Shown here: positions 22,951-61,098 of the stretch, one piece after another
Layout of the letters: each line of letters opens with the position of its first letter
Numbering within the stretch: position 1 is the stretch's first letter
NCBI GenBank assembly: GCA_001003475.1
Contig: LCPF01000001.1
Location: 328,549 to 392,548, forward strand
DNA length: 64,000 nucleotides
Source of the DNA: Candidatus Jorgensenbacteria bacterium GW2011_GWA1_48_11
GTDB taxonomy: Bacteria > Patescibacteriota > Minisyncoccia > UBA6257 > GWB1-50-10
Direction: 5' to 3'
The notes under the pieces: model-generated
Told to the model about the DNA's origin: nothing
Seen by the model: only the letters and a program-made list of their open reading frames with translations
Database searches by the model: none
Program-made: the position numbers and the translations under genes

Positions 22951-23097
22951 TCATTCGTCCTGGTCTCCCAGTTCGAGCGCGATATCGGCCAGGCGGACTT
23001 CGTCTTCGTCATCGAAACACTCCCCGACTTCGTCATCGAAACACTCTTCGCCTTCGTCGTCGAGGCATTCCTCGTTCTTTTCTCCCGGACCGAGCAC
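22951..23097 (-). CDS. Candidate 48-aa highly acidic Cys-containing repeat peptide (GTG start)
   Basis: SD GGGGAGGTG is 6 nt before the GTG. The sequence is M-LGPGEKNEECLDDEGEECFDDEVGECFDDEDEVRLADIALELGDQDE. It contains a tandem 24-bp nucleotide repeat. A TGcTATAAT extended -10 lies upstream. Confidence 0.3.
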   Translation of the reverse strand: MLGPGEKNEECLDDEGEECFDDEVGECFDDEDEVRLADIALELGDQDE

Positions 23098-24984: not shown

Positions 24985-25050
24985 AGTGACGGCCCGAATG
25001 GTAGAATTGAAAATTTTGACCGCTATAAAAATAAGGATTAGAATTTATTT

Positions 25051-25725
25051 ATGAAAAAAAGCGTAAAGTTTTTTCTCGATACCGCTAACTTAGACGATAT
25101 TAAGGGGGGTATAACTCTGGGAGTTTTTTCGGGCGTAACAACAAATCCAGTTATTGTTTCTAAGGAAACACACAACTACAAGGATTTTCTCATCAAAATA
25201 TTGGATACGATTCCCAAAAATTGGGAGTTAAGCGCAGAAGTGAAGGCGGGGAACACAGCAGATATGGTAAAACAGGCGAAGTTGTTGGCTGTTATGGATA
25301 AGCGGATTCGCGTGAAACTGCCGACAAACGTGGAAGGTCTTAAGGCTGCAGAGCAGTTGATCGAAAAGATTCCTTTGAACATGACTGTTGTAAAGCTTCC
25401 TGCGCAAGCCATGATGTGTCAGGCGTTGGCCGCGCGACATAAACCGAAAGACATCTTACTTTCCGTATTTTGCGGCCGAATCAATCAAGCCGGCTATGAC
25501 TGGAGGCCTATCCTTGAGAAAATATCACAGGTAGATTGGCCCGGAAAAATTTTGGCCGCATCTATAAAAACTCCGTTCGATATTGCGGAAGCCGTGGCTC
25601 ATGGCGCAGAAATCGTTACGGCACCGCTTGATGTTTATCAAACATCCCTCAGTTCGAAATTAGTTCAGGAGGACGTTGATTTGTTCAATAAGCCGTTTGA
25701 CGGCAAGGATTTTGAGGTCCGGTAA
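25051..25725 (+). CDS. Transaldolase / fructose-6-phosphate aldolase family protein (short TalC/FSA type)
   Basis: N-terminal FLDTANLDDIK...GVTTNP motif. 224 aa. Confidence 0.8.
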   Translation: MKKSVKFFLDTANLDDIKGGITLGVFSGVTTNPVIVSKETHNYKDFLIKILDTIPKNWELSAEVKAGNTADMVKQAKLLAVMDKRIRVKLPTNVEGLKAAEQLIEKIPLNMTVVKLPAQAMMCQALAARHKPKDILLSVFCGRINQAGYDWRPILEKISQVDWPGKILAASIKTPFDIAEAVAHGAEIVTAPLDVYQTSLSSKLVQEDVDLFNKPFDGKDFEVR

Positions 25726-25726
25726 A

Positions 25727-26605
25727 ATGAAATGTCTTCTGTGTAAAAACACGGAATTTGACCAAATTGCTCATTCACTCCGAGGAGGAGAGTTAATAAA
25801 TGTAAAAAAGTGTCTAAAATGCGGACACGTGCAGTTATATCCATTGCCAACCGAAAAAGAAATACAGGAGCGATACGAGACCGCGGCCGTATCAATACCG
25901 CAATCGGAAAAGAAAAGATTGAGCGATAAAGAGGTATTTTCTCTTCGAGATACTATTTATAATGCCGATCTTGTTTCTTCTCTCATCCCCAAAGGAGCAA
26001 CTGTTCTTGATTATGGATGCGGCTACGGCTTCTTTCTTAAAGAAATGAAAAAAAGGAAATATAATATAAGCGGAGTGGATATTTCTACAATCCGTACTGC
26101 CGTAGCAAAAAAAAATGCATCGAAGATAGAAATTAAACAAAATCTTACGGATCTTTCGCAAAAATCTTTTGACTGTATTACTGCTTTTCATGTTCTTGAA
26201 CATGTTCGTGATCCAATTGGTTTACTTATAACGCTGAAATCATATTTAAAACCGGGAGGCAGATTGATCATTGAGGTGCCAAACCTCGACGACCATTTGA
26301 TATCTCTCGTCCCGGAATATAAAGATTTTTATTGGAAAATAGAACATTTGTCGTACTTTAACGCGAAAACGCTAGCTTATTGTGTTCGTAAGGCCGGTCT
26401 TAAATTGCAAAAGACTTTTTACTACCAACGTTGGGATATTTTCAATTTGATGAATTGGGTATTACGGCGAGCGCCTCAACCGCCAGCCGAAGTCGTTTAT
26501 TTTGCCGAACGGCCGAAATTAATCAGCTGGTTGCAAAATCATTACAAGGAATATTTATCCAAGAATAAAACGGCGGACGCGGTTTTCATGGTGATAAAAT
26601 CGTGA
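25727..26605 (+). CDS. Class I SAM-dependent methyltransferase with N-terminal zinc ribbon
   Basis: CLLCKN...CLKCGH zinc ribbon followed by methyltransferase motif I (VLDYGCGYGFF). The start is 1 nt after the upstream stop. Confidence 0.75.
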   Translation: MKCLLCKNTEFDQIAHSLRGGELINVKKCLKCGHVQLYPLPTEKEIQERYETAAVSIPQSEKKRLSDKEVFSLRDTIYNADLVSSLIPKGATVLDYGCGYGFFLKEMKKRKYNISGVDISTIRTAVAKKNASKIEIKQNLTDLSQKSFDCITAFHVLEHVRDPIGLLITLKSYLKPGGRLIIEVPNLDDHLISLVPEYKDFYWKIEHLSYFNAKTLAYCVRKAGLKLQKTFYYQRWDIFNLMNWVLRRAPQPPAEVVYFAERPKLISWLQNHYKEYLSKNKTADAVFMVIKS

Positions 26606-27213
26606 CTAACGTAAAAAAAGACTTTTATGTAGTTGGGCTATACGGAATAAATTCTGCCGGTAAGACCGCTATTTCTCGGTTGCTTATGAAAGAAATCCCC
26701 ATATGCGAAATACAATCTACCGACAATTTAATGAAATTGTTTAAGTCTTATCACAAGGATCCAAAATACGTCGGCCTTTCGAGTCGTACGGCGTGGAAGC
26801 TTATCGGCGAAGAGAACGAAACTAACATTATTGAAGGGTTTAAAATATACAGGAGTATTGTTTCGTCCGATATAGATGTTTTAATAAACCGGGTGCCGAC
26901 AGAAAATTTTACAATGATATTTGAGGGAATCCATTTTTCGCCAAAGAATAGAGAAGCGGATAAAGCCGTAAAGATAATTCCCATATTACTTACCCTTCAG
27001 GACAAAGAGGCGCATAAGAGAAGAATTATTGAAAAATGCAATGGAAGAAACGAACTAGAACAGAGGTTGCTTGACGGCATGAAAACAGCAAGATTAATTC
27101 AGGAATTCCTTATAAGAGAAGCAAAAGAAAACGGGACGATTGTTGTGGATACAAGTTTTGATATCGTAAAACAAACTCTTAATAAAATTCTTAAAATTAT
27201 CAGTGATTACTGA
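26602..27213 (+). CDS. P-loop NTPase / predicted kinase
   Basis: Walker A motif GLYGINSAGKTAIS. Confidence 0.55.
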   Translation: MTNVKKDFYVVGLYGINSAGKTAISRLLMKEIPICEIQSTDNLMKLFKSYHKDPKYVGLSSRTAWKLIGEENETNIIEGFKIYRSIVSSDIDVLINRVPTENFTMIFEGIHFSPKNREADKAVKIIPILLTLQDKEAHKRRIIEKCNGRNELEQRLLDGMKTARLIQEFLIREAKENGTIVVDTSFDIVKQTLNKILKIISDY

Positions 27214-28162
27214 TCATACGCATATACTGACAAAGTGGGGAGATATAGTAACCGCAAGGGGTTTTAACGACGGTGATTTAATTTATGTAGTGCCTCTTTA
27301 TTTCCTTTCAGATAAAGGTAGCCGCACTTATAGCGGGGAAAAATACGAAAAATACGTCGATGAATTTGCAGAACGTTATCGGCATTTTCACCCGGAATTG
27401 GTTCGGTCTACGCCTTACGGCCAGCGAGTAGCGATACGGGAGGACCAGATTACGCGCGCCTTCGATCCTTTTGCAAACCCTCGGCTTATTTATGATTCTT
27501 TTGACAAAAAAATTTATCGGCGGGTTGTCGATATTCTTACTAAATTTGTCCCCAGAGAGAGCATTGGATTTATCGGGTCGAGCCTGGTCGGTTTCCAGAC
27601 GGCTGGTTCCGATTTGGATATAGTAATTCGCGGTCTAGAGAATTACCGGACCTTACGCGGCCAGTTCAAGGATTTTCTGAATGCTTTAGGGGCATGCGCC
27701 ACGATAACCAGGGAACAGTTTTATAAATCTGTTGTAAAATACGAACGGTTATTCAATGGAGTCAATAACGATTTCGCGACAATGATTAAAAACCGTTGGC
27801 CCACAATTCATATGCCAGGTGAATTGTTTTGTAAAATCCGTTTCACGTTGAATCCGGCCAATGACGTTATTTTCTCCGCACCTTCCAACCTTTCTTTAAG
27901 GGAAGGATCGGTCAATGGGAAAGTTATAGAGGACGAGGGCGTCGCTTTCATGCCCAGACATTTTCGATTACGTCTGAACGAAGGTGCAGAATACGAGACC
28001 ATTACTTACCATTGGGATTATTCTTACTGCGTAATGGTAGGCGACGAAGTGACGGTTAGAGGAGCAATTGATGAGAGCGAGAAAATTATAGTCGTTAGTG
28101 ATCGGAAGAATCACGGCATAACTTTTAAAAAACAGAATAATATTGCCTGTGCTATTGTATAA
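27203..28162 (+). CDS. Nucleotidyltransferase (Pol-beta superfamily) domain protein
   Basis: GS...D.D motif (IGSSLVGFQTAGSDLDIVI). Confidence 0.55.
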   Translation: MITDHTHILTKWGDIVTARGFNDGDLIYVVPLYFLSDKGSRTYSGEKYEKYVDEFAERYRHFHPELVRSTPYGQRVAIREDQITRAFDPFANPRLIYDSFDKKIYRRVVDILTKFVPRESIGFIGSSLVGFQTAGSDLDIVIRGLENYRTLRGQFKDFLNALGACATITREQFYKSVVKYERLFNGVNNDFATMIKNRWPTIHMPGELFCKIRFTLNPANDVIFSAPSNLSLREGSVNGKVIEDEGVAFMPRHFRLRLNEGAEYETITYHWDYSYCVMVGDEVTVRGAIDESEKIIVVSDRKNHGITFKKQNNIACAIV

Positions 28163-28166
28163 ATTT

Positions 28167-29138
28167 ATGGAAACACAAACCCTTTATAGAACTTTCGATA
28201 CGAGATTTGAAAAGGAAGTACTGCCTTACATTGAGAAAAAGCTTCCACGGGATTATTTTTCAGAACCGATTTATTACTATATTGATAATTTTCAAATGCG
28301 TCGTTTCCGCGCAGTATTGCCTCTTATTATCGCCGAACATACCGGCGTCAATTATGAAGACGCTTTGGCGCTTGGAGCGGCATCCGAGCTCATCTTTACC
28401 ATCGCCTTAGTTCAGGACGACTTTATAGACGGCGATAAGATGAGGGGTGATATTTTAGCAGCTCACGAGAAATACGGCGCAGGGCGAGTCTTAGCATCGG
28501 CTGATTATGCGTATGGTGCGGTCTACGATATGATTTCGGATTTATCTCGTGGCGATGTGCCTGCGGCCGCTTTTAAAACAATCCTGGAAGGATTTCAGAA
28601 ATCCCATAGAGATCTTTATCAGAGTTTTATTATGGAATTAGGCTTTCAATTTCCCACCATTGAGATTACCAAAGAATATGTGAGGAAGGTGCATTTAGCG
28701 AAAACGGCACAGGGAATTAACGCTCTTTATTGTATCGGGGTACTAGCAGAACAAAAATCGGCCGGAAAGTTATCTCGAATATTTAAACGCTACGCGGAAC
28801 TGTTGGGAAGCGCCGGACAGATTAAAAATGATGTTTATGATTTCACGCGATATGCCGAATCAAGGGGATTATCCGATTTTCGCAATGGATATATCACATA
28901 CCCTCTCGCATATCTTGCAGAAGTAGTCGATCGAGTTCATTTAAGCGATATTCTTAAGAAGAAAGACGTGGATGGTTTTATGGATTTAATGAAGGAATAT
29001 AATGTAGTTGAAATATTGCGTAAAGAGATAAATGATCTTGCCGATCAAGCGATTTCAATTATCAAAGAAATTCCTTTGCCGATGCCGCTTAAGGAGATCT
29101 TAGAGTGTTGGGCGGAAGGCAATAGATTTACTCGTTAA
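28167..29138 (+). CDS. Isoprenoid (polyprenyl/terpene) synthase-fold protein
   Basis: First Asp-rich motif DDFIDGDKMRG (DDxxD...RRG-like) and a second motif NDVYD. Confidence 0.55.
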   Translation: METQTLYRTFDTRFEKEVLPYIEKKLPRDYFSEPIYYYIDNFQMRRFRAVLPLIIAEHTGVNYEDALALGAASELIFTIALVQDDFIDGDKMRGDILAAHEKYGAGRVLASADYAYGAVYDMISDLSRGDVPAAAFKTILEGFQKSHRDLYQSFIMELGFQFPTIEITKEYVRKVHLAKTAQGINALYCIGVLAEQKSAGKLSRIFKRYAELLGSAGQIKNDVYDFTRYAESRGLSDFRNGYITYPLAYLAEVVDRVHLSDILKKKDVDGFMDLMKEYNVVEILRKEINDLADQAISIIKEIPLPMPLKEILECWAEGNRFTR

Positions 29139-30301
29139 TTTTCTTGATTAAAATAATGTTCATTCCTTAAAAGATTTTTATTAAAAATATCTAAGACTTG
29201 TCTTGCTCGGTTACGCCATTCATAACTTTTAACGTCAATTATTGCTTGTTTCGCTAGAGAACTAGCCAATTTTTTATCTTGAATAAGTTTTGCAATACCA
29301 TCAGCCAGTATTTTTGGATTATTCGGTTCAACCAAGAGAGCATTAGCATCATTTAATACTTCACGTATTGATGGCAAATTGCTAGCTATTATTGGTGTGT
29401 TGCTGGCCATATACTCAAAAAGTTTTAACGGAGAAGTCAGTTTTTCCGAGATTTGATTCCCCTTTTTATTAGGTAGTATCAGAATATCGGCTGCTTTAAG
29501 ATAGAGAGGGATTGAGGCGTGTGGCTGACGACCAACACATAAGACGTTTTCGGGCAAGAATTCTCCGGTAGATTTTTCCGCGTCCGACGAATTTCCACCC
29601 ACGACTACGAAAATAAAATCATTGGTGAAAAATTTCGCGGCTTTGATAAAAACATCTTCTCCTTTCCAATCCTTGTAAAATCCTACACTACCGCTATATA
29701 GGATAATTTTCTTGTTTAAGGGCAGATTTGTGATTTTTCTGGCTTCCAAATGATTTGTATTTAGGTCAAATTTTTTCAAATCGACCCCATCTGGAAGAAG
29801 AGAGATTTTTTGCGGTGAGATATAATACTGATTCTTAATTATTTCAACCATCGCTTTTGTAATGGTTACGATAAGATCGACTCGAGGAAAAACATATCGA
29901 TCAAGCGGAAAAGGTACGTGAGCTTCCATAACAATTCTAATGTTGCTGGAAAAAAGTTTTTTCCAAATCAAGGCGTAAGTCGCAAGACGCGTGTCTTTAA
30001 AATACAGAATGGTTTGGGAAACGGTTGATCGATTTGAGATCAATAAAAAAGGCATCCATAAAAAATAATAGTAGATGGAGAAAAAGCGTTTAAAGAAAGG
30101 GGGGTTTACGATATGGTGCGGTATTTTTGAAAGATTTTCATTTTCTTCTCCAGAGCAGACAAGAATAAATCCGTTACCGAGTAGTTGGCTGAAGGCTTGA
30201 GCCATCGAGAGTACTTGGATTTGGTTGGCAAAGCACGTCCTAAAGTTGAGAGGTGTAATATAAATAAGTTTTTTATTCTCCAGCATATCAATTATTTCCA
30301 T
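29135..30301 (-). CDS. Glycosyltransferase family 1 (GT-B, GT4-like)
   Basis: C-terminal EX7E-type motif region (EYMASNTPIIASNLPSIREVL). 388 aa. Confidence 0.8.
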   Translation of the reverse strand: MEIIDMLENKKLIYITPLNFRTCFANQIQVLSMAQAFSQLLGNGFILVCSGEENENLSKIPHHIVNPPFFKRFFSIYYYFLWMPFLLISNRSTVSQTILYFKDTRLATYALIWKKLFSSNIRIVMEAHVPFPLDRYVFPRVDLIVTITKAMVEIIKNQYYISPQKISLLPDGVDLKKFDLNTNHLEARKITNLPLNKKIILYSGSVGFYKDWKGEDVFIKAAKFFTNDFIFVVVGGNSSDAEKSTGEFLPENVLCVGRQPHASIPLYLKAADILILPNKKGNQISEKLTSPLKLFEYMASNTPIIASNLPSIREVLNDANALLVEPNNPKILADGIAKLIQDKKLASSLAKQAIIDVKSYEWRNRARQVLDIFNKNLLRNEHYFNQEN

Positions 30302-33621: not shown

Positions 33622-33691
33622 ATGAATTCAGAAACAAGGAATTGTCAGAATTGCCAGCCCAAGGCTGGTCCGCCTCGGGCGGACAAACATC

Positions 33692-47262: not shown

Positions 47263-47979
47263 ATGGCTCTGATCGAAGTCAGCCGTCTTGAAAAGATATA
47301 TGCCGACGACGGCGTCATGACGCCGGCGGTGCGGGGCGTGACTTTTGAAGTTCAAAAAGGGGAATTTGTGGCGATCATGGGTCCGTCGGGTTCCGGCAAA
47401 TCGACCCTGCTCCACGTCCTGGGTTTTCTGGACCGGCAGACCGCCGGTTCTTACCGTTTTAGCGGCAAAACCATCGATGATTATTCGTCCAAAGAATTGG
47501 CTCGAGTGCGCAACAAGGAAATGGGTTTTGTTTTCCAGACTTTCAATTTATTGGCGCGGATAAACGTTTTGGAAAACGTGAAACTGCCTTTGCTTTATTC
47601 GGGCATCAAAGAATCGTTGTGGGATCACATGGCTAAGGAAGCCATTGAAGCCGTCGGCCTTTCCCACCGGCTGGAACACGAATCAGCGAAGCTCTCGGGC
47701 GGCGAAAAGCAGCGGGTGGCGATCGCCCGAGCCCTGGTCCTGAATCCGCAGGTGATTTTCGCGGATGAGCCGACCGGCAACCTCGATTCCAAATCCGGCC
47801 AGGCGATCATGGAAACCCTCCAGCATTTGAACGAGGAGCACGGCCACACCGTGATCCTCATTACCCACGAGACTTACACGGCGGAACACGCCCAAAGGAT
47901 CATCCATATTTTGGACGGAAAAATAGACAGCGATGAAAAAGTCGACCGGCGCCGCAAAAGCAACGAATTTTCAAAATGA
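47263..47979 (+). CDS. ABC transporter ATP-binding protein (MacB/LolD-type)
   Basis: Walker [13 protein letters not shown] signature [15 protein letters not shown] and Walker B. Confidence 0.9.
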
Positions 47980-49217
47980 CGCTGAAATACAGTTTTAAAA
48001 CAGCCTTAAACGGCCTCAAAACCCACAAGTCGCGTTCGGTTTTGACGATTTTGGGCATCGTGATAGGCATCATGGCCATAATCCTCGTGATGTCTTTGGG
48101 CCAGGGCGCGCAAGACCTGATATTGGGCCAGATACAGGGCCAGGTCAGTTCGAGCGTCATCGAAATCGCTCCGGGCCGGCAGCCGAAAGGACCGACGGAT
48201 TTTCTATCCATGTTTTCCGACTCTTTGAAGCAAAAAGACCTTGAAGCGCTCATGAAAAAAAGCAACGTGCCCCACGCGGAAAAGATCATGCCCTTGGTTT
48301 TTGGCAGCGAGAGCGCCGTTTACGGCAGTGAGACTTACCAGGCGACGCTTTACGGAATGACCGACGCCGCCGGCACGATGTACAACGTTTATCCGGGCGA
48401 CGGCCGATTCATTACCGAAGAAGACGTGAAGAGCTATGCCGATGTCGTAGTCCTGGGTTCGAAGGTGAAAGAGGAGCTTTTCGGCAACGATAGCGCCGTC
48501 GGCCAGAAAATAAAGATAAAAGGAAGAAATTTCAATGTCGTCGGCATTCTGGCCAGCAAGGGGCAGGGGATGATCATTAGTTTTGACGATACGGTGATCG
48601 TCCCGTACACCACGGCCCAACGCTACATCTTGGGCATAAAGTATTTCAATCACATAATCATTCAGGCTGACTCCGACGCCAACGTTCCGGAGACCGTGAA
48701 CGACATAAAAATCACCTTGAGGAATTCCCATAACATTACCGATCCGGCCAAAGACGACTTTAACGTGAACAGCCAAGCCGATGCCTTGAAGATGGTCAGT
48801 ACGATTACCGATGCGCTCACGCTTTTTCTGGCGGCCATCGCCACGATTTCGCTTTTGGTTGGCGGCATCGGCATCATGAATATCATGCTTGTTTCGGTGA
48901 CCGAACGGACGCGGGAAATCGGTTTGCGCAAGGCCTTGGGAGCGACCGAAAGCGACGTTTTAACCCAATTTCTTTTGGAAGCCGTGATTTTAACGGCCAT
49001 CGGCGGCATTATCGGGATTTTCTTGGGCGCATCGCTTTCATTTTTGACTTCCTTGGTGCTGAGCAATGTTTTGGCCACGAATTGGGCTTTTACTTTTCCG
49101 GTCGGTGCGGCGATCCTGGGCTTGGGCGTGGCGGCTTTGGTCGGCTTGATCTTCGGCCTTTATCCGGCCCGCCAAGCCTCCCGCAAGAGTCCCATTGAGG
49201 CTTTAAGATATGAGTAA
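47976..49217 (+). CDS. ABC transporter permease (FtsX/MacB family)
   Basis: An N-terminal TM helix, a large periplasmic domain and three C-terminal TM helices. Overlaps the ATPase gene by 4 nt. Confidence 0.85.
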   Translation: MTLKYSFKTALNGLKTHKSRSVLTILGIVIGIMAIILVMSLGQGAQDLILGQIQGQVSSSVIEIAPGRQPKGPTDFLSMFSDSLKQKDLEALMKKSNVPHAEKIMPLVFGSESAVYGSETYQATLYGMTDAAGTMYNVYPGDGRFITEEDVKSYADVVVLGSKVKEELFGNDSAVGQKIKIKGRNFNVVGILASKGQGMIISFDDTVIVPYTTAQRYILGIKYFNHIIIQADSDANVPETVNDIKITLRNSHNITDPAKDDFNVNSQADALKMVSTITDALTLFLAAIATISLLVGGIGIMNIMLVSVTERTREIGLRKALGATESDVLTQFLLEAVILTAIGGIIGIFLGASLSFLTSLVLSNVLATNWAFTFPVGAAILGLGVAALVGLIFGLYPARQASRKSPIEALRYE

Positions 49218-49249
49218 AATTATTTTTCATGGAAGTCTGGTTCGACTTG

Positions 49250-49280
49250 CCCCGTACCAACGCGTAGCTTCGGTGCGGGG
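49250..49280. repeat. Short GC-clamped palindromic element (CCCCGTACC...GGTGCGGGG), a member of the family seen at the uvr locus
   Basis: The ends match the termini of the elements at 54981, 56990 and 60161. Confidence 0.4.
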
Positions 49281-49302
49281 TTGAAGCTTTGCGCTACGAA
49301 CA

Positions 49303-52973: not shown

Positions 52974-54980
52974 TTGCAGATGGATAAATTTAAACTGATT
53001 TCAAAAAATAAGCCCGCTGGGGATCAACCCAGGGCAATAAAAGAGCTGGTTAACGGCCTCTCGAAAGGTTTGAATCGTCAAACGCTTTTGGGCGTGACCG
53101 GTTCGGGCAAGACCTTTACTGTGGCGAACGTGATTGCCGAAACCAATCGGCCGACATTGGTTATTGCTCATAACAAAACCCTGGCGGCCCAGCTTACGAA
53201 CGAATTCCGAGAGCTTTTTCCCCAAAATTCCGTGAATTATTTCGTTTCTTACTATGATTATTACCAGCCCGAGGCTTACATTCCCACGACCGACACTTAT
53301 ATCGGCAAGGAAGCGATGATCAACGATGAGATTGACAAGCTGCGGCATGCGGCGACAACGGCCCTGCTCACGCGGCGGGACGTAATCGTGGTGGCCTCGG
53401 TTTCCTGCATTTACGGCTTGGGCGCGCCCGAGGTTTACGCCGAAAACATCTTTCATTTCAAGATTGGTGACAGGATTAAACGGGCGGAATTCGCCAAAAA
53501 ACTGATTGAACTGCAGTTCAGCCGGACCAACGCCGATCTCACGCGCGGCACCTTCCGTCTGCGGGGCGATAACTGGGAGATCATGCCGCCGGACAGGGAA
53601 TTGATTTACAATTTCGAGCTCAAGGACGATACGATTCGGAAGATCTACGAGATCGATCCGGTTTTGGGCTTCGTTCCGGAAAAGACGAAAACCTTGCCTA
53701 AGCTTTACATTTCGCCGGCCAAACATTTCATTACTCTCACGCCGGAGCGGGAACGGGCTATCAAGGCTATTAGGGAGGAATTGAAAGAGCGGCTGAAATA
53801 TTTCGAGAAGAACGGCAAATTATTGGAAGCCGAAAGGCTGGAGCGCCGGACAAAATTCGACCTGGCTATGATCAAGGAGGTCGGCTACTGCCACGGTATC
53901 GAGAATTATTCCCGCCCCTTGTCGGGCCGGGCGCCCGGCGCGCCGCCGGACACGCTTCTGGATTATTTCCCCGATGGTTTTTTGACGGTGATCGACGAAT
54001 CACACGTTTCAGTGCCCCAGATCCGGGGAATGTATGAGGGGGACGCTTCGCGCAAGAAGACGCTTATCGAATACGGTTTCCGGCTGCCTTCGGCCGCCGA
54101 TAACCGGCCTTTGCGCTTCGCTGAATTCGAGAAAAGAATCGGCCAGACCGTTTTCACCTCGGCCACGCCCGGCCCTTATGAAAGAAAAACGAGCGCGAAA
54201 GTGGTGGAGCAGATCATTCGGCCGACCGGCCTCATTGACCCCGAAATCGTGATGAAGCCGGTGAAGGGCCAGGTGCCGGATTTGATCGCGAGAATAAAAG
54301 AAAGAGCCGACAAAAAGGAAAGGGTGCTCGTGACGACCCTGACCAAGCGGATGGCCGAGGATTTATCGGCTTATCTCGAGGATTTGAAAATCAAGGTTAC
54401 TTATTTGCACAGCGACGTGAAGACTTTGGATCGGATCAGGATTTTGACCAGTTTGCGGAAAGGGGATTTTGACGTTTTGGTCGGCGTGAATTTGTTGCGG
54501 GAAGGCTTGGACTTGCCCGAGGTGTCCCTGGTGGCGATTCTGGATGCGGATAAGGAGGGGTTTTTGCGAAGCGAGACTTCCTTGATCCAAACGATCGGCC
54601 GGGCGGCCCGGAATGTTCGCGGCCAGGTTCTGATCTACGCCGACCATATCACCGGCTCGATCGAGCGGGCAGTCGGTGAGACCGAACGCCGGCGAAAAAT
54701 CCAGCTTGCCTACAATAAAAGGCACCGGATCACGCCCAAGACCATTATTCGGGCGATTACCGATATTTTGCCGACCGAGGAGATTTTGAAATTGGAAATG
54801 AAACCGATTCCGAAATCCAAGAAGGCTCTAGAGCAAACAATAAAAGACAAAGAAAGGGAGATGAGAAATGCTGCAAAACGTTTGGATTTTGAGTTAGCTA
54901 CTATATTGAGAGATGAAATTAGGGCTTTGTCTAAAAATTTGAGTCCAGCTGGACGAAAAATTTTTAGTAACAAAATCTAA
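52974..54980 (+). CDS. uvrB: Excinuclease ABC subunit B. The probable true start is 52980 (MDKFKLIS). The last ~37 codons are AT-rich relative to the gene body.
   Basis: Helicase motifs ([10 protein letters not shown]), beta-hairpin and a C-terminal UVR domain. Confidence 0.9.
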
Positions 54981-55058
54981 CCCCGTCACTAAAAGAGCAT
55001 TATTAAAAATCGCTCCGAGCGGAAGCTCGCAGAGCACAATGCTCTTTTTGGTGCGGGG
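54981..55058. repeat. GC-clamped palindromic element, copy 1
   Basis: Arms CCCCGTCACTAAAAGAGCATT ... AATGCTCTTTTTGGTGCGGGG. They are exact reverse complements of the arms of the copy at 56990-57066. Confidence 0.6.
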
Positions 55059-55060
55059 TG

Positions 55061-55144
55061 CGGGAAGCGGCTAAGCGGCTGGATTTCGAACTGGCGGCGA
55101 TTTTGCGGGATGAGCTTAAGGAATTAAGCAGGAAAATAAAATAA
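55061..55144 (+). pseudogene. Displaced duplicate of the uvrB 3' end (27 codons plus stop) with its own terminator
   Basis: Translates to [27 protein letters not shown]. It matches the current UvrB C-terminus ([22 protein letters not shown]) but uses GC-richer codons. The terminator at 55148-55180 follows. Confidence 0.6.
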
Positions 55145-55189: not shown

Positions 55190-55558
55190 TTAGGCATTGC
55201 AGTAGCGGGTATACCAGGCCCGAGCCGCCTTTTCGATGATCTCGCGATCGGCCCGCTCTTCGAGAAGCTGGTGGGCGGCAAGAGGAGAAAAGGAAAGGTC
55301 AAGCGTCCGGAAGTGCGGCGACCGCCAGGCGCAGAAGCCGAGCGCTTGCGCCTGGGAGAGGGTAGTGTGAAATTCCTTGTAGCGTCCGGTGACGGGGTCG
55401 CGGTAGAAGAAAGCTAATTCGTCGCGCAGAATTTCGAGGGCGGCCGGGAGCGCTTTTTCCAGTTTGTCCCCGTCAAGGCCCATTCTCCCGCTGAGTTTCG
55501 CCATTGCGGCCAGGAGAGCGAGCACGATGTCGACATTCTGCTGTTCTGGAGTCGGCAT
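55190..55558 (-). CDS. Hypothetical protein (122 aa), GC-rich cargo gene
   Basis: Ends at the bidirectional terminator. No motif recognised. Confidence 0.5.
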   Translation of the reverse strand: MPTPEQQNVDIVLALLAAMAKLSGRMGLDGDKLEKALPAALEILRDELAFFYRDPVTGRYKEFHTTLSQAQALGFCAWRSPHFRTLDLSFSPLAAHQLLEERADREIIEKAARAWYTRYCNA

Positions 55559-55716
55559 TCTGACCTCACGGAAGAACGTGGGAACGTCAAGATGGCTGAT
55601 TTCATTATTCGATTTTTTTCAAAAAAGACAAGCTTTTAAAAGCGAAAATCTCCCGGCAGAGGGCCTGCCGGGAGATTCGGATGCGGTGGGAAATTCGTTT
55701 AAGCGGCGGTCCGGTT

Positions 55717-56649
55717 CTAAACCATTTCCGGCTTGAAGCCGGTGGCCCAGCCGGATTGCCCGGAGCCGCCGCCGAAAAGGCAGAGCTCGAGCGAAAGCGT
55801 CTTCTCGCGCTTGAGGTAGCTGAAGCAGACGGTGCGTCTCGGTCCGTTTCCGTCCGTGACGATCTGGTTGCCGCCGCAGCCGACCGTGAGATTCCGGCCG
55901 TTCACGAGCCGTTCGGGGTGGGTGAGGAGCGTGGCGGTGACGCACACCAAGTCCAGGTGAAACTCGTTCTCCATGAACCTGGCGATGCTGCCCTTGGCCG
56001 AGTCGCCGCCGTGCTGACGGCCGAATTGGCCGTCGATGACGAGGATCGGGTTGCCTTCCTGATCGTCGGCGACGGCATCCAGGGCTTCGGCGGTTTCGGG
56101 CGCGATGAAGATCTGGTCCGGCGTGATCGTCATGTCCGGATCGATCTCGAGTCCCCGCTTCTTGCCGAGAATTTCGACCAGGTGCCGGACGACGGCGCAG
56201 TAGCGGCTCCGCGGGTCGCGGAATCGGTTGAAGAAGGTGCCGCTGAGGTGTTGATGCCAGGGGACGGCGAACTTGCCTTCGGCGCCGATCGAAACGTCTG
56301 CCGCGAGCCTGTTCTCGATGAAGGCGAGGGTGCCCTCGACCGGGAGGTCGAGAAGCTGGCCGAGTTGGATCGCCTGCTCGGCGATGTCCCGCAGGCGGTA
56401 GCTCGCGGGGTAGGCGTTGGGGACCATCTGCTGGATCGCGTCGAATGGTCTCGATACGCCGAGGTTCGCGATCTCCCTTCTCACGATGGCGGCGAGTGCG
56501 GGGAAGTGCTTGAGGACGTTTCGGATCTGGCTGTCGTGGCCAGCCAGATCCTTCTCGGCTTGCCGGCCGAGGCCCTCCATGAGCTCGCTCAGGGTTGCTT
56601 CGGTCGCGATGCCTTCGAGGGTGGGGGCTAGCGTGGCGGTCATTATCAC
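55717..56649 (-). CDS. Hypothetical protein (310 aa), GC-rich cargo gene
   Basis: The minus-frame composition is diverse. The plus-strand ORF 55681-56631 is Ala/Gly/Asp/Arg-rich and is rejected as antisense. Confidence 0.5.
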   Translation of the reverse strand: MIMTATLAPTLEGIATEATLSELMEGLGRQAEKDLAGHDSQIRNVLKHFPALAAIVRREIANLGVSRPFDAIQQMVPNAYPASYRLRDIAEQAIQLGQLLDLPVEGTLAFIENRLAADVSIGAEGKFAVPWHQHLSGTFFNRFRDPRSRYCAVVRHLVEILGKKRGLEIDPDMTITPDQIFIAPETAEALDAVADDQEGNPILVIDGQFGRQHGGDSAKGSIARFMENEFHLDLVCVTATLLTHPERLVNGRNLTVGCGGNQIVTDGNGPRRTVCFSYLKREKTLSLELCLFGGGSGQSGWATGFKPEMV

Positions 56650-56950: not shown

Positions 56951-56992
56951 TATGGCACAGGATAAAATAATCATTAAAGGCGCCCGCGAGCA
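56951..56992 (+). pseudogene. Displaced duplicate of the uvrA 5' end (ATG plus 13 codons)
   Basis: Translates to [14 protein letters not shown], against the current uvrA start [13 protein letters not shown]. It is GC-rich in codon use and abuts element copy 2. Confidence 0.55.
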
Positions 56993-57066
56993 CCCCGCAC
57001 CAAAAAGAGCATTGCTTGCTTCGGCTACCGCCGGCAAGCCTTTGAAAATGCTCTTTTAGTGACGGG
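56990..57066. repeat. GC-clamped palindromic element, copy 2 (inverted relative to copy 1)
   Basis: Arms CACCCCGCACCAAAAAGAGCATT ... AATGCTCTTTTAGTGACGGGG. Confidence 0.6.
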
Positions 57067-57084
57067 GCAGGCAATCTTAAACAT

Positions 57085-59601
57085 ATGCAAGATAAAATCA
57101 TTATAAAAGGAGCAAGAGAACATAACCTGAAAAATATAAATCTCGAGATCCCGCGCGATAAGATGGTGATTTTTACGGGTCTTTCCGGTTCGGGCAAGTC
57201 TTCTTTGGCCTTCGACACGATTTTTGCCGAAGGCCAGCGCCGCTATATCGAGTCGCTCTCGGCTTATGCCCGGCAGTTTTTGGGCCGGCTCGACAAGCCG
57301 GACGTGGATGAGATTGACGGCTTATCGCCCGCGATCTCGATTGACCAAAAAAGCCATTCTTCGAACCCGCGCTCGACCGTGGCGACGATCACGGAAATCT
57401 ACGATTATCTGCGGGTGCTTTTTGCCCGGGCCGGCAAGCCGCATTGCCCGATTTGCGGTCTCGAGATTAAAAAAATGACGAATGAGGAGATAGTGGACGT
57501 CGCCACCGAGGTGTACAAAGAAAATGTTTCCCGGAAAAACATGGTGGTTTTGGCGCCGGTCGTGCGCGGCCGCAAAGGCGAGTATTACCAGATGCTTTAC
57601 GATTTTTTGGGCGCCGGGTTTTCCGAAGTGCGGGTGGACGGCATTTTCATGTCGTTGCGCGACCGAATCGAGCTCAGCCGTTACAAGATCCACAGCATTG
57701 ATTTGGTCGTGGATCGGTTGCCGGCCGGACTTGATTTCGGGACCAAGGAAAACCGTTTGCGTTTGGCCGAAGCCGTGGAGACGGGGTTGAAATATGGCCA
57801 CGACGTCGTGACCCTGATTACCGACAAAGAAACCTCCCTTTCGGCCAAATTCACCTGCCCCCACGACGGTTTTTCTTTTCCGGAGATCGAGCCGCGGCTT
57901 TTCTCTTTCAATAGTCCCTACGGGGCGTGCCCGGCCTGCAACGGCTTGGGTACGGAAACCGTCTGGTCGGAAAAGATCTGCCCGGTTTGTTTGGGAAAAA
58001 GATTGCGGCCTGAAGCCCTGAACGTCCTCATTAATAAGAAGAACATCGCGGCGACCACGGCTTTTTCCATCGCCGAGGCTTATGATTTTTTCAACAAGCT
58101 GGAATTGACCGGCAAAAACACTTTTAAGGAGATTTCGGAAGTGCCTTTGCGCGAGATTAAGAACCGTTTGAAATTCATGATCGACGTCGGTTTGGATTAT
58201 TTGACCCTGGCCCGCAAGGCCGGCACCCTTTCGGGCGGCGAAGCCCAGCGTATCAGGCTGGCTTCCCAGATCGGTTCGCGCTTGACCGGCACCCTATATA
58301 TCCTGGACGAACCGACGATCGGTCTCCACCAGCGGGATAACGCCAAATTGATCCGGACGCTTCATGATTTGCGCGATTTGGGCAATACCGTGATTGTCGT
58401 GGAGCATGACGAGGAGACCATCTGTTCCGGCGATTATCTGGTGGACATCGGCCCGGCGGCCGGGGTCCACGGCGGAAAAATCGTGGCGTACGGCAAAATG
58501 CCGGAGATTATAAAAGACAAAAACCAAAATTCGCTTACCCTGGAATACCTCCGTGGCAAGCGTTTTATTGAAGTGCCGTCACGTAGGCGGAAAGTGACGA
58601 AAGACCACGATTTTTTGAAGATCAAGGGCGCCGCCGAAAATAATCTTCAGAACATCGACGTCAACGTTCCTTTGCGGCGGTTCACGGCCGTGACCGGCGT
58701 TTCCGGCTCGGGCAAAAGCACTTTGGTTTACGACGTGCTCTATAAGACTTTGGCCAATAAATTCAACGGCGCGGCTTACAAGGCCGGTGTTCATAAAACC
58801 ATGACCGGTCTCGAATACGTCAATCGGGTGGTGAATATTGACCAGTCTCCGATCGGCCGCACGCCCCGTTCCAATCCAGCGACCTATGTCGGCGCCTGGA
58901 CCTTCATTCGGGATCTGTTTGCTTCGACTGAAGACGCCCGCGTCCGCGGCTATAAGCCCGGCCGGTTCAGTTTCAACGTCAAGGGCGGCCGCTGCGAAAA
59001 CTGCGAAGGCCACGGCTTGATTGCGATCGAGATGCATTTCCTGCCCACGGTTTACGTGGTTTGCGACATTTGCAAAGGCAAGCGTTTCGACCGGGAAACC
59101 TTGGCCGTGGAATACAAAGGCAAAAATATTTATGACGTGCTTCAAATGACGGTTGAGGAAGCGGTTAGTTTTTTCGAGGACATTCCCTGGCTGCATGACC
59201 GGCTGCGGGTTTTGAACGAAGTGGGCTTGGGCTATCTGGAACTCGGCCAGTCGGCCACGACCCTCTCCGGCGGCGAAGCCCAGCGTATTAAGCTTACGGC
59301 CGAGCTCGGCAAGCGCGACACCCGAAAAACGATCTATCTTTTGGATGAACCGACGACGGGCCTTCATTTCGCCGACGTGGACAATTTATTGAACGTTTTG
59401 AACCGGCTCGTGGAGCGGGGGAATACAATTGTCGTGATCGAGCATAATTTGGACGTGATCAAAACCGCGGATTGGGTGATCGATCTGGGGCCCGAGGGCG
59501 GGGACAAGGGTGGCCGGATCGTGGCCCAAGGTACGCCCGAGGACATTTCCAAAAAAAACGGCAGCTTTACGGCCGAATATTTGAGGAAAGTTCTAAAATA
59601 A
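57085..59601 (+). CDS. uvrA: Excinuclease ABC subunit A (838 aa; the insertion domain between the zinc-finger pairs appears to be absent)
   Basis: Two ABC modules ([24 protein letters not shown]), zinc fingers and the UvrB-binding region are present. The protein is about 100 aa shorter than typical UvrA. Confidence 0.9.
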
Positions 59602-59738
59602 TCCCTCACCCTTCAAAGATAAGAAGCTTAATCGATAAACCGATTTATGAACTCATTAGAAAACAATATTAGTCTAAAAAGGTCTTTATTGATCAAAGAT
59701 TACTTCCTTAGAAGTGTAATCTTTGAAGGGTGAGGGAT
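59601..59738. repeat. 138-bp MITE-like element with perfect 20-bp terminal inverted repeats, lying exactly between the uvrA stop and the uvrC ATG
   Basis: ATCCCTCACCCTTCAAAGAT at 59601-59620 is the reverse complement of 59719-59738. The right terminus supplies GAAGGGTGAGGG and then the ATG of uvrC. Confidence 0.55.
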
Positions 59739-61098
59739 GGAAAAGCTTTATAAAAATTTGCCTGAGACGCCCGGCGTTTATCTGATGAAAGACGCCGCCG
59801 GCCGGATTTTATACGTCGGCAAGGCCGTCAATCTGCGGCGGCGGGTGGCGAGTTATTTCACGTTTACCCGCCGAAGCGAAGGCGAAGGAGGGCGGTCCCC
59901 CGCCGTCGCTTACGCTTTGGCGGGCAAGCATGATTTGCGCTTGGAAAAATTGGTCCGGGAGATAAAAAAAATAGATCTTAAGAAAACCGATACGGCTTTG
60001 GAAGCATTGATTCTGGAGTCGGCGCTCATAAAAAAACACCAGCCGCCCTGGAATATCCGGGAAAAGGACGATACGAGTTTCCTCTATGTCGGCATCACTG
60101 ATGATTATTTCCCGAGAGTAATTTTGGTACGAGGTAAGGTTATAAAAGGGAAGGCGCTTGCCCCGTCACTAACCGAGCGCTACCAAAATCGCTTCGCGCG
60201 GAAGCGCGAAGAGCGCGGTGCTCGGTTTAGTGCGGGGTTCGGGCCGTATACTTCAGCTTCGGATATCCGGGAGGCCCTAAGGATCATCCGCCGGATTTTT
60301 CCCTTTAGTACTCATTCGGCCGAAGCCATCGGTAAATTTAAAAGACCTTGCTTTGACTATCAGTTGGGTTTGTGCCCGGGTACTTGTATCGGCATCATTG
60401 ACCGTGGGGATTATCTCAAGAACATCAAAAACATAATTTTGCTTTTCCAGGGTAAAAAAAAGGAAATTTTGAAAAATCTTCAGTCGGCCATGAAATCGGC
60501 TAGCAAAAAGCTGGAATTCGAAAAAGCCGGGAAAATCCGCCGTCAGATCTTCGCCTTGCAGCATATTCAGGATACTGCGCTCATCACGGATGGGCGAATT
60601 CAAAATTTAAAATTTAAAATTCAAAATTCCTTCCGGATTGAAGGGTATGACATATCGAATATTTCGGGGCTCTCGGCCGTGGGGAGCATGGTGGTTTTTT
60701 CCGCCCAAGGCGGACCAGCCTCGGGCAGGATATTAAAGCCGGACAAAAACCAATATCGGAAATTCAAAATCGGCACGGTTTTTGGCTCTAATGACACGGC
60801 TATGCTTGCGGAAATGCTGGGTCGCCGGTTGAACCACCGCGAATGGCCCTTGCCGGATCTGTTCCTGATCGACGGCGGCAAGCCCCAAGTGAACGCCGTT
60901 CGCTCGGTTTTGGACGAATTTGGATTGCAACTGCCCGTCGTGGGCATTGCGAAGGGCGCAAAGAGGAAGAAAAACGAATTTATCGGTCCGGTGCCGAAAG
61001 AAATCGGTGAAAAAACCCTGATTCAGGTTCGGGATGAAGCTCATCGTTTCGCCGTGAGTTATCACAAAAAATTAAGAAGTTATAGCTCTCTGTTATAA
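59737..61098 (+). CDS. uvrC: Excinuclease ABC subunit C, short form (453 aa: GIY-YIG, UVR and RNase H-like endonuclease domains, no C-terminal (HhH)2), with an in-frame palindromic-element insertion
   Basis: GIY-YIG motif (GVYLMKD...YVGKA), UVR motif (FEKAGKIRRQIFALQ), endonuclease motifs (IEGYDISN, LIDGGK). Confidence 0.8.
   Translation: MEKLYKNLPETPGVYLMKDAAGRILYVGKAVNLRRRVASYFTFTRRSEGEGGRSPAVAYALAGKHDLRLEKLVREIKKIDLKKTDTALEALILESALIKKHQPPWNIREKDDTSFLYVGITDDYFPRVILVRGKVIKGKALAPSLTERYQNRFARKREERGARFSAGFGPYTSASDIREALRIIRRIFPFSTHSAEAIGKFKRPCFDYQLGLCPGTCIGIIDRGDYLKNIKNIILLFQGKKKEILKNLQSAMKSASKKLEFEKAGKIRRQIFALQHIQDTALITDGRIQNLKFKIQNSFRIEGYDISNISGLSAVGSMVVFSAQGGPASGRILKPDKNQYRKFKIGTVFGSNDTAMLAEMLGRRLNHREWPLPDLFLIDGGKPQVNAVRSVLDEFGLQLPVVGIAKGAKRKKNEFIGPVPKEIGEKTLIQVRDEAHRFAVSYHKKLRSYSSLL
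60161..60237. repeat. GC-clamped palindromic element, copy 3, inserted in-frame within uvrC
   Basis: CCCCGTCACTAACCGAGCG...CGCTCGGTTTAGTGCGGGG. It is translated as APSLTERYQNRFARKREERGARFSAGF with no stop. Confidence 0.55.

Follow-up and report, generated by a model that had tools for sequence, protein, structure and literature searches.

A DNA hairpin of about 81 nt, here called E, occurs in Candidatus Jorgensenbacteria bacterium GW2011_GWA1_48_11 and in other Patescibacteria, and at most of its sites it has a displaced stub of a conserved gene end on one side and a foreign-looking replacement of that same end on the other. A limited literature search turned up no description of this architecture for bacterial repeat elements, and it is apparently undescribed. 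The chances that E is a low-copy mobile DNA element confined to Patescibacteria appear about even. These bacteria have very small genomes, from which, to our knowledge, few mobile elements have been described.

The original prediction for the window, by which is meant the whole stretch of 64,000 nucleotides analysed, proposed a family of GC-clamped palindromic repeats with four copies, one of them an in-frame insertion in uvrC. The family is real, with further copies at 44 metagenome loci and 17 real matches among GTDB species genomes. Since these copies exist and the uvrC segment is absent from most orthologs, the insertion reading of that segment stands.

The hairpin family and its copies in the window

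The window holds three full copies of E and one internally deleted copy, all within 11 kb. E1 (54981..55058, + strand) lies immediately 3′ of the uvrB stop codon. E2 (56993..57071, − strand) is inverted, with its core at 56993-57067 and an end that includes CCTG at 57068-57071. E3 (60157..60237, + strand), an 81-nt in-frame insertion in uvrC, consists of CTTG and the 77-nt core delimited earlier (60161-60237). The short copy (49246..49280, + strand), CTTG plus a 31-nt hairpin, was recognised by its model match, its hairpin fold and its flanks. A covariance model built from 41 copies of other genomes, applied with its filters disabled to the entire window, recovered all four of the predicted copies and no other significant site; it scored E3 at 91.6 bits, E1 at 88.7, E2 at 87.1 and the short form (49246-49281) at 23.7 (E = 0.003). 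The fold of every full copy is a single long hairpin that contains a bulged T and an inner hairpin; relative to dinucleotide shuffles, z is about −6. Three of the four copies sit at uvrB, uvrA and uvrC, as had been pointed out, but the apparent preference for uvr genes is not real. E targets uvrA/B/C, tsaD, dnaK, dnaE, a holA-like gene, mnmA, htpX, prfA, ychF, rpsJ and a xerC-like gene, and also the D- and T-loops of tRNAs and the loops of CIRCE operators.

E is an imperfect palindrome, CTTG-CCCCGTCAC...GTGCGGGG, and being palindromic over its full length it has terminal inverted repeats. The GC-clamped foot is invariant (CCCCG-T-CAC / GTG-CGGGG), and its extra T, always present and bulged in 41/41 copies, gives the element a polarity. 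The tip is conserved (GCGG-N-AGC) and the middle stem covaries freely. Compensatory double changes were found at 14 of the 26 base pairs predicted over the 41 copies. Watson-Crick pairs fill 94% of the paired cells, and mismatches are equally rare whichever strand is transcribed (G-T 19, A-C 16). Since the pairing is thus Watson-Crick on both strands, it points to a structure maintained at the level of DNA, not RNA. A structured RNA was rejected for this equal rarity of G-T and A-C, for the flip in orientation between 5′ and 3′ sites, and because Rfam contained no family matching E, whether the cutoff was the gathering threshold or E ≤ 5. An intrinsic terminator was also rejected: only one T stands beyond the foot of E before host sequence resumes, and a terminator scan caught only sub-hairpins inside E1.

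All real matches, the 17 in GTDB species genomes and the 44 metagenome loci, belong to Patescibacteria. The same structures recur in independent NCBI, JGI and ENA assemblies, one of them an 805-kb chromosome-level record. Copy number is low: that chromosome contains three strict matches. The nearest relative of an E interior mostly sits at another site, which argues for movement between sites; the interior of E2, for example, is 91% identical to that of the E at the 3′ end of htpX in an AT-rich locus (L036). No transposase adjoins E in about 60 loci of 1–21 kb. Carriage by phage was ruled out by a search of viral contigs, which had no matches.

E3 adds exactly 27 codons (81 nt) in frame to uvrC (59737-61098), as the original prediction had it. 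The insert encodes LAPSLTERYQNRFARKREERGARFSAG, residues 141-167 of UvrC, and lies precisely between the R and the (F/Y)GPF of UvrC orthologs that lack E. These amount to about 100 of the 120 orthologs compared, among them the sister ortholog P0002, and the R|FGPF junction is clean. The orthologs that do carry E are scattered over the UvrC tree, and some hold internally deleted remnants. Within the coding region the palindrome has been preserved by compensatory changes, and the uvrC copies have no flanking repeat whatever. In the predicted structure of UvrC, residues 142-160 form a low-confidence loop (pLDDT <50), and the odds that the host tolerates E3 as a translated, 27-residue surface loop seem evenly balanced. 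An intron or translational bypass was rejected, since the insert measures exactly 81 nt and about 16 orthologs keep the frame open without stops.

Displaced stubs and replacement gene ends

For each of the other three copies (E1, E2 and the short form), the GGGG end touches a displaced stub of a gene end (uvrB 3′, uvrA 5′ and the 3′ end of an ftsX-like gene) and the CTTG end looks toward a complete replacement of that end. About 50 copies from other Patescibacteria show the same architecture. It is strongly polar. Among 35 testable copies the repeated block begins 0–2 nt from the GGGG end in 18 (binomial P about 2e-19) and 0–2 nt from the CCCC end in none, where the distance is 5–60 nt. The flanking gene-end repeat is 0 to about 80 nt long, with one of its two copies set off from E by a spacer of 5–60 nt.

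The short copy follows the stop codon of an FtsX/MacB-like permease gene (47976-49217, + strand) and on its far side the final codons of that gene are repeated. The stub (49281..49301, + strand) reads (G)TT GAA GCT TTG CGC TAC GAA, or IEALRYE, and the replacement 3′ end (...IEALRYE*; 49194..49217, + strand) uses AT-rich codons (att gag gct tta aga tat gag taa) in a gene whose body is GC3-rich; 5/6 codons differ, all synonymously. The copy retains the left CTTG and the right T flank, and a full-length E occupies the same permease target at another locus (L030). The short form is a true, internally deleted member of the family.

At uvrB (52974/52980-54980, + strand) the replacement 3′ end (54835..54980, + strand) is compositionally foreign, with a GC3 of 0.17–0.25 compared to 0.72 in the gene body and 0.67 in the displaced native stub (55059..55144, + strand). 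The 18 codons compared between stub and replacement contain 12 synonymous and 3 non-synonymous differences. The last 75 nt of the new tail are 89% identical in DNA to the tail in a distant lineage (L079/P0134), despite gene bodies that are only about 70% identical, and that lineage has a decayed E after its uvrB stop. The closest UvrB relative (L081/P0124, 87% amino acid identity) has a tail that is stub-like and unlike the replacement; identity to it is 78% for the stub and 67% for the replacement.

The uvrA stub (56952..56992, + strand) begins at its ATG and opens a 35-codon upstream ORF that passes through E2 and stops at a TAG within the end of E2. A 13-nt spacer, homologous to the spacer at locus L046, and the AT-rich replacement 5′ end follow (57072..57150, + strand; gene 57085-59601). 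Over 11 codons, stub and new start differ synonymously at 8 and non-synonymously at none. GC3 is 0.2–0.3 over the first 20 codons of the gene and about 0.7 beyond; in the native stub it is 0.57 by hand count.

Two ORFan genes of 122 and 310 aa (55190..56649, − strand) lie between the uvrB and uvrA stubs. Pfam and NCBIfam contained no match to them, and a search of 5.8 billion proteins gave a single weak homolog. Their arrangement is identical in all contigs of this population, and they belong to the native side and are not part of E. A composite transposon E1...E2 with the two genes as cargo was rejected, because the inner stubs are native in codon usage, the stub tail of uvrB fits the closest relative, and the ORFans are unlinked to E elsewhere.

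Read from their codons, stub and replacement are shown to be of two functional ancestries. Over all loci the differences at codon positions 1/2/3 are 33/24/100, and 80 codon differences are synonymous against 40 non-synonymous, a count that includes some misframed rows. Synonymous and non-synonymous differences number 3 and 0 in ychF (5 scored codons), 4 and 0 in ftsX, and 10 and 1 in htpX, and in the stubs of tRNA genes the stem bases differ yet would remain able to pair. Local hypermutation of the new copy was rejected by eye, in view of many C-to-A transversions and of arginine codons that switch families.

Codon composition likewise shows the stub to be the native end and the replacement the foreign one, by contrasts measured over short stretches of 6–40 codons. 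In prfA (L042), GC3 is 0.86 in the body, 0.84 in the stub and 0.47 in the replacement. The foreign tract runs about 13–20 codons past the repeat. The stub has the native composition from its very first bases on. A general test of flank GC was uninformative because the sequence is AT-richer on both sides of E.

At 5′ sites the upstream ORFs stop between −47 and +23 nt relative to the new ATG, with an ATGA overlap in four. The ORF of the old start crosses the hairpin to a stop that lies within the hairpin's end or on the new ATG; translational coupling is thus the probable route of expression for genes with E at the 5′ end. Where E is at a 3′ end, a new stop codon is provided by the substitute gene end. 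Junctions recur at the same nucleotide across lineages (KPAGD| in five uvrB genes, ETSCD| in tsaD), and the base beside the foot of E is T in 47/48 listed copies, the exception being L024. Pairwise profiles of new 5′ ends, compared for the same gene across genomes, showed no similarity beyond that of the gene bodies, which leaves the uvrB tail as the one documented case of a recently shared module. Two repeats are nearly identical (3 differences in 46 nt at L036, 21/21 identical at L019), and these young cases could equally be in-situ duplications.

Possible mechanism and alternatives

How these junctions arise is something we infer from their structure. It is an even call that E is a DNA-level hairpin which spreads laterally together with the adjoining gene end, by homologous recombination on one side and a joint at the hairpin foot on the other. 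E1, E2 and the short copy would be cases of "insertion with rescue", in which the GGGG end has been joined to the remnant of the host gene end, and what follows the CTTG end is a short spacer, then a full substitute for the gene end that continues into the body of the host gene. A fragment consisting of E, spacer and gene end would arrive from another lineage and pair with the conserved gene of the recipient through gene-end homology. The other end of the fragment, set and probably protected by the hairpin foot, would then be joined to the resident strand at a G^T step within the homologous region. The resident gene end would persist as the stub and a foreign copy would be gained.

Exact junctions that recur and a nearly invariant T would fit a site-specific enzyme better than illegitimate joining. 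Jumps to new sites, taken with the conserved foot and tip, suggest that a putative protein also recognises the folded strand of E. In the material covered, no such enzyme, free intermediate or population polymorphic for E-bearing and E-less alleles was observed.

Somewhat more tentatively, E might be regarded as a new kind of mobile element without an enzyme of its own, a "hairpin-capped gene-end cassette" that passes between species as a fragment of about 150–300 nt. Such a cassette would combine the hairpin with a conserved gene end and would enter by one-sided homologous pairing and a joint at the hairpin foot. It would be harmless because a working spare gene end and translational coupling come with it. 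The process would amount to a natural "insertion with recoded rescue" that uses DNA uptake in Patescibacteria.

Several other explanations are less probable. A non-autonomous transposon, MITE- or REP-like and served by a transposase in trans, would have flanking repeats that are target duplications made in situ and later diverged. We consider this rather unlikely, even though the conserved foot and tip and the polar, invariant extrahelical T are like the hairpins of HUH and tyrosine enzymes, and the likeness of interiors between different sites, the near-identical repeats of L036 and L019 and the T flanking 47/48 listed copies would all suit a transposon. A dead stub left in place should lose its likeness to protein, yet the differences are mainly synonymous and near saturation. 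Native GC3 is found in the stub and not in the replacement, and the foreign tract extends beyond the repeat. Repeats of 0 to about 80 nt, a 5–60-nt spacer before the second copy, a new uvrB tail in common with a distant lineage, and the lack of a transposase beside any copy in the loci read are further difficulties.

Gene-end duplication with synonymous divergence is a classic signature of integration, and tyrosine integrases prefer tRNA loops and the loops of inverted repeats. The targets of E include the T- and D-loops of tRNAs and other inverted-repeat loops (CIRCE, terminators), so that E and its spacer could be viewed as a miniature relic of integrase-type integrative elements, with the repeats as attL and attR. 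This has a lower probability than the transposon: a single 81-nt hairpin family with more than 20 unrelated targets would need many specificities, only about 100–140 nt separate the repeats, and the flanks contain no integrase. Crossover in a shared core would predict neither the tract past the repeat nor a stub native right up to the junction, and repeats are entirely absent from the uvrC copies. A foreign tract that starts 10–20 codons beyond the repeat, and a stub that is native from the outset, also weigh against the integration of a small circle in Campbell fashion and against a site-specific crossover placed precisely at the repeat boundary.

It is quite improbable that E is a host cis-regulatory hairpin and not selfish, whether as a stabiliser of mRNA, an attenuator or a protein-binding site of a stress or repair regulon. 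Many targets have roles in repair or heat shock (uvrA/B/C, dnaK, hrcA/CIRCE, clpB, htpX, dnaE), the structure is strongly conserved, and an upstream ORF that ends at the new start codon resembles designed coupling. However, the orientation to transcription reverses between 5′ and 3′ sites and tracks the side of the stub, pairing is Watson-Crick on both strands with no excess of G-U on the transcribed strand, and Rfam has no match. E is also patchy among close orthologs, leaves decayed remnants, and occurs in the flanks of tRNA genes and inside operators that it splits. The reading of the uvrC segment as ancestral protein sequence, with the repeats due to chance or assembly artefact, has nothing in its favour beyond the preserved frame and is refuted by the orthologs with a clean junction, by compensatory changes that uphold the palindrome inside the coding region, and by the recurrence of the structures in independent assemblies.

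The family colonises some of the most conserved sequences, repair and chaperone genes, tRNA loops and CIRCE operators, without destroying them, and would represent a compact natural case of gene disruption plus rescue. The proposed cassette, if real, would explain how selfish DNA can reside within essential genes, tRNAs and operators of minimal genomes, and a dedicated hairpin-recognising enzyme, if one exists, could be a new DNA-joining activity. Since E marks very short lateral imports between CPR lineages, it is a possible tracer of recombination in uncultured populations. E is also a hazard for annotation, where it gives rise to spurious upstream starts, N-termini that are fused, 27-residue "insertions" and orphaned pieces of genes.

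Likeness to known systems

Rickettsia palindromic elements (RPEs) are palindromic repeats found in frame in conserved protein genes and translated as additional surface segments, according to a review (PMC10969869, summarising Ogata et al., 2000). The original prediction of RPE-like in-frame colonisation applies to the uvrC copy, a palindromic in-frame insert absent from most orthologs; a stub and a regenerated end accompany the other three copies, which are located at gene ends. RPEs also resemble E in being located at RNA genes as well and in having no known transposase. E is shorter (81 compared to about 100–150 bp), occurs in another phylum and has a low copy number, and the stub and regenerated gene end that accompany most E copies are unreported for RPEs in that review. 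With all real matches in Patescibacteria, the relation to RPEs is one of analogy, not membership.

The terminal inverted repeats are MITE-like, as had also been proposed. E is nevertheless not a typical MITE, since it lacks a short target duplication of fixed length, a nearby transposase and a high copy number; its flanking repeats are diverged and 0 to about 80 nt long. MITEs and REP/REPIN sequences (Correia, ERIC, BOX) are, like E, short dispersed non-coding palindromes that form hairpins, and in the hairpins of REP and IS200/IS605, as in E, an asymmetric base sets strand polarity. In contrast to these, E favours coding sequence at the ends of strongly conserved genes over extragenic space and is accompanied by long, diverged gene-end repeats. 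REP/REPIN-RAYT units are 20–40 nt, extragenic and of high copy number, whereas E is 81 nt, with 3–4 copies in 64 kb mostly in or at coding sequence. Mycobacterial MIRUs are reportedly small repeats with an internal ORF that overlaps the stop and start codons of neighbouring genes and so preserves translational coupling, as E may do. MIRUs lie between operon genes and, unlike E, are not palindromic hairpins with gene-end duplications.

The attC sites of integrons offer a structural analogy. Like E, they are imperfect palindromes with conserved ends, a covarying middle and extrahelical bases that mark the strand, and their junction is at a G|T step; recognition by structure and not by sequence would be a further likeness. 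The RYYYAAC/GTTRRRY boxes, cassette arrays and nearby intI of attC are all absent from E, which ends in CCCCGTCAC / GTGCGGGG and occurs as singletons in core genes.

Integrative elements such as phage 21 and e14 at icd, and the islands in tRNA and tmRNA genes, bring a substitute gene end. In these elements and in E, a replacement end with synonymous divergence keeps the target intact, the original end becomes a distal pseudo-fragment, and T-loop sublocations of tRNA genes are used. As at att sites, direct repeats of the gene end surround the insert and the target gene is regenerated. E differs in its size of about 100–140 nt, in having no integrase, in its more than 20 targets per hairpin family and in the tract beyond the repeat.

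Homology-facilitated illegitimate recombination is said to occur in naturally transformable bacteria by means of a homologous anchor and a non-homologous joint. Such a scheme agrees with what is seen at E, where the foreign tract is one-sided and the stub is native. The joints in that process are scattered at microhomologies and recipient DNA is usually deleted, whereas in E the hairpin foot is invariably the site of the joint, and the resident DNA is duplicated.

Copies of the element in the window

The original prediction described four palindromic sites in the window, and their contents agree with that description on inspection of the sequence. Three are full-length copies of a palindromic hairpin element of about 81 nt, here termed E: E1 (54981-55058, + strand), E2 (56993-57067, - strand) and E3 (60161-60237, + strand), the last in uvrC. 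Their common ends are CCCCGTCAC...GTGCGGGG, and each forms a single long hairpin that has a bulged T and contains an inner hairpin (z about -6 relative to shuffles, on either strand); paired changes separate the middle and inner stems of the three copies. A covariance model trained on 41 copies from outside the window, and run without filters over the whole 64 kb, matched these copies (87-92 bits) and a short form at 49246-49281 (23.7 bits, E=0.003), and revealed no further E beyond the four sites. Rfam has no family matching E. It did give a group I intron match (56.7 bits, above the gathering score) at 3438-3739 (+), by a tRNA-Lys at 3311-3384 (-), in the gap that follows a class-II ribonucleotide-reductase-like ORF (814-3264); on the + strand, no gene hosting this intron was identified. 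A 24-nt unit (family D8) is present in three tandem copies at 23001-23072.

E1 lies directly 3' of the stop codon of an intact uvrB and is followed by a second, differing copy of the uvrB C-terminus (27 residues). E2 is inverted; upstream of it the start of uvrA (ATG...) is present a second time, and the intact uvrA begins 17 nt beyond it. The short form is 3' of an FtsX/MacB-like permease gene, past its stop codon (...SPIEALRYE*), and is succeeded by (G)TTGAAGCTTTGCGCTACGAA, coding for IEALRYE. At all three sites the GGGG end of the element touches the displaced gene-end fragment, or stub, and the CTTG-CCCC end is directed toward the functional copy. The in-frame insertion originally proposed thus describes the uvrC copy, but not these three, which are sited between a stub and a functional gene end.

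The uvrB-uvrA spacer is filled by two ORFan genes of 122 and 310 aa (55190-56649, - strand), for which protein searches gave no family matches and a single weak homolog; relatives have hpf (ribosomal S30AE family) at this position. A perfect TTGACA-17-TATAAT is present at 56759-56731 (-). A composite transposon, E1...E2, enclosing the two ORFans conflicts with stubs that are native in character.

A UvrB protein identical to that of the window is on record from Candidatus Jorgensenbacteria bacterium GW2011_GWA1_48_11, and all UvrC homologs found were from Patescibacteria. In an alignment of 120 orthologs, the window protein carries LAPSLTERYQNRFARKREERGARFSAG exactly at the junction R / (F/Y)GPF. 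A similar insert of 24-29 residues with the conserved ends LAPSL...RFSAG is present in about 16 orthologs, a few have only remnants, e.g., L..FGAE, and the remaining majority, including the sister sequence P0002, lack it. The clean junction and the many orthologs without the insert confirm an in-frame insertion. E-bearing orthologs are scattered in the UvrC tree. Comparison of the ortholog junctions defines the inserted unit as 81 nt (60157-60237), consisting of CTTG and a 77-nt core. UvrC residues 142-160, within the insert, have pLDDT <50 in an AlphaFold2 model with a mean pLDDT of 81. Rickettsia palindromic elements were used as a comparison, and the uvrC copy of E works likewise (PMC10969869); E comes from a different phylum, and is likened to them by behaviour with no claim of membership.

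Two more in-frame palindromic inserts are present in uvrC. One, at 59867-59924, encodes aa 45-64, RRSEGEGGRSPAVAYALAGK (DNA hairpin z -3.3); the other, at 60696-60734, encodes GGPASGRIL and has an inverted near-copy 27 kb away at 33649-33687. Both include stretches of low confidence in the model (residues 59-64 and 326-329, pLDDT <50). The related peptides LRQGFGGQ, RRNLGEGG and GGPASG are found again at several sites among UvrC orthologs; therefore other repeat families also colonise coding sequence.

Distribution, targets and polarity

Strict pattern scans of one genome per GTDB species and of metagenome contigs established that further copies exist outside the window. The GTDB scan gave 22 matches, 17 of them real palindromes, all in Patescibacteria MAGs; the other five, from Actinobacteria, are non-palindromic chance matches. 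Metagenome contigs contained 44 E loci, mostly from groundwater and sediment, and viral contigs scanned with the strict pattern contained none. Copy number is low, with three strict matches in one 805-kb chromosome-level record, and in relatives of the window locus the uvrC copy is the only E present.

The targets are varied. At 5' ends, E is found in uvrB after KPAGD and in tsaD after ETSCD (five and four lineages, respectively), in uvrA at codon 3-4 or after GAREH, and in dnaE, dnaK, holA-like, mnmA and cobA-like genes; 3' ends are targeted in htpX, prfA, ychF, rpsJ, ftsX-like and xerC-like genes. Other targets are the D-loops and T-loops of six tRNAs, which ARAGORN continues to call intact in every case, the loop of the CIRCE operator upstream of clpB/hrcA, a terminator loop and a promoter -35 box. 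The predicted clustering of three copies at uvrBAC is seen in the window, but given these many other genes, tRNAs and operators it does not represent a uvr-specific function. In the CIRCE cases (L019, L034, L067, L071), the heat-shock operator TTAGCACTC-N9-GAGTGCTAA is interrupted by E within its loop; a new operator, complete in itself, is found 14-60 nt away. At two tRNA-Thr 5' sites (L050, L065), the 53-59-nt gap between a variant of E and the regenerated tRNA contains one more small conserved hairpin, cagggagca...tgtcccgcacc. A shorter, 67-nt subfamily (L037, L063) is without the CTTG flank.

Duplication of the gene end beside E is general and polar. Best local alignment of 400 nt on the CCCC side with 130 nt on the GGGG side of 48 distinct copies placed the start of the repeat 0-2 nt from the GGGG end in about 27. 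Among the 35 copies with long flanks, the repeat was at the GGGG end in 18 (P ~2e-19) and at the CCCC end in none; on the CCCC side it was 5-60 nt distant, this gap being the spacer.

In the 5' cases, a short ORF from the old ATG runs through the reverse complement of E, mostly in the frame ...D-PAPKRAL..., and stops at a TGA/TAG within GGTGACGGGG or near or overlapping the new ATG. The stop and the new ATG overlap as ATGA in L011, L012, L015 and L046; the stop ends at -1 in L072 and -4 in L014, and the range over all cases is -47 to +23. The 35-codon upstream ORF in the window terminates 25 nt before the uvrA ATG. This arrangement would fit termination-reinitiation coupling.

Separate histories of the two gene ends

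Differences between stub and functional copy number 33, 24 and 100 at codon positions 1, 2 and 3, with 80 synonymous and 40 non-synonymous codon differences, some tRNA and misframed rows being included in these counts. Clean cases gave synonymous/non-synonymous differences over scored codons of 3/0 for ychF, 4/0 for ftsX, 3/0 for rpsJ, 8/0 for uvrA, 10/1 for htpX and 12/3 for uvrB (UVR motif). Arginine residues change codon family between the two copies (AGR and CGN), and the stem bases of tRNA stubs are unlike those of the new copy. Synonymous sites are near saturation and the stub is still protein-like, as a dead fragment decaying in place would not be, which argues for two lineages. Judged from these codon patterns, stub and functional end must derive from different lineages, in each of which they were functional.

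In uvrB, the stub (GC3 0.67) is close to the gene body (0.72), and the functional tail is far lower, at 0.17-0.25. uvrA has a GC3 of 0.2-0.3 in its first 20 codons and ~0.7 thereafter; its stub, counted by hand, has 0.57. In prfA of L042, GC3 drops from 0.86 in the gene body to 0.47 in the new copy, the stub being at 0.84, and the last 20 codons before the repeat already have a GC3 of 0.30. The nearest UvrB relative (P0124/L081, 87% aa identity) is without E and has a stub-like end, ...AAILRNEIKELAKKK*; over the first 54 nt, its uvrB end is 78% identical to the stub DNA and 67% to the new copy. The functional UvrB tail of the window was found again only in P0134/L079 (77% aa identity overall), where the last 75 nt of uvrB are 89% identical and the body ~70%. 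By GC3 and tail identity, the stub is the resident gene end and the functional end beside E an import, which reaches slightly past the repeat into the gene body. L079 also has a decayed 36-nt remnant of E (CCCAGCACTTATCGCAATAAGTGCTGTGGTGCGGGA) at 2434-2469, 3' of uvrB. It belongs to a distant AT-rich lineage, and no stub is visible beside the remnant; this may be the look of a donor-type locus. Two low-GC islands in the window, 15000-21000 and 25000-30000 (29-42% GC vs ~50% elsewhere), were probably acquired horizontally.

Mode of spread and comparison with known systems

The favoured mechanism is lateral import of a short fragment comprising E, the spacer and the gene end (+10-40 nt). One side would be fixed by homologous pairing within the conserved gene; on the other, the hairpin foot would be attached to the resident strand at a G^T step that lies within the region of homology, leaving the resident gene end as a stub. 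This would be a type of homology-facilitated illegitimate recombination, in which the hairpin may mark or shield the end of the incoming single-stranded DNA. Import of this kind accounts for the native stubs, a foreign tract that overshoots the repeat, repeats of variable length and a preference for ultra-conserved motifs, since no other sequences offer homology across lineages. It accommodates less easily the high precision of the joint, whose position recurs to the nucleotide across several lineages, the T flanking 47 of 48 listed copies, and the greater likeness of E interiors between different sites (e.g., 91% between E2 and the htpX copy of L036), which together point to a further activity specific to E. 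Between genomes, new 5' ends of one and the same gene were not unusually similar, so that most events do not represent recent transfer among the genomes sampled.

In-situ duplication of the target by a transposase is contradicted by the synonymous-biased divergence, the native stub and the imported functional end. An integrase att scar conflicts with the occurrence of one hairpin at >20 targets, with the tiny size of the "element" and with a tract that overshoots the repeat.

A regulatory RNA is contradicted by the patchy distribution and by evidence for pairing at the DNA level. Compensatory double changes occur in 14 of the 26 predicted pairs, paired cells are 94% Watson-Crick, mismatches (19 G-T, 16 A-C) are equally rare regardless of the transcribed strand, and orientation tracks the stub side, not the direction of transcription. 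These patterns argue for a constraint on DNA, as a folded single strand or cruciform, rather than on RNA. An invariant extra T and the conserved tip GCGG-N-AGC suggest, by analogy, that a protein may recognise one folded strand of E; integron attC sites and the hairpins of IS200/IS605 and REP are so recognised. Independent assemblies exclude an assembly artefact.

A limited literature search did not find this combination of three features described, and the mode of spread has a substantial probability of being new. The target gene is regenerated as in integrase-type integrations, the hairpin is of MITE/REP size, and the probable translational coupling is like that of MIRU. E belongs among the palindromic repeat elements that colonise genes.
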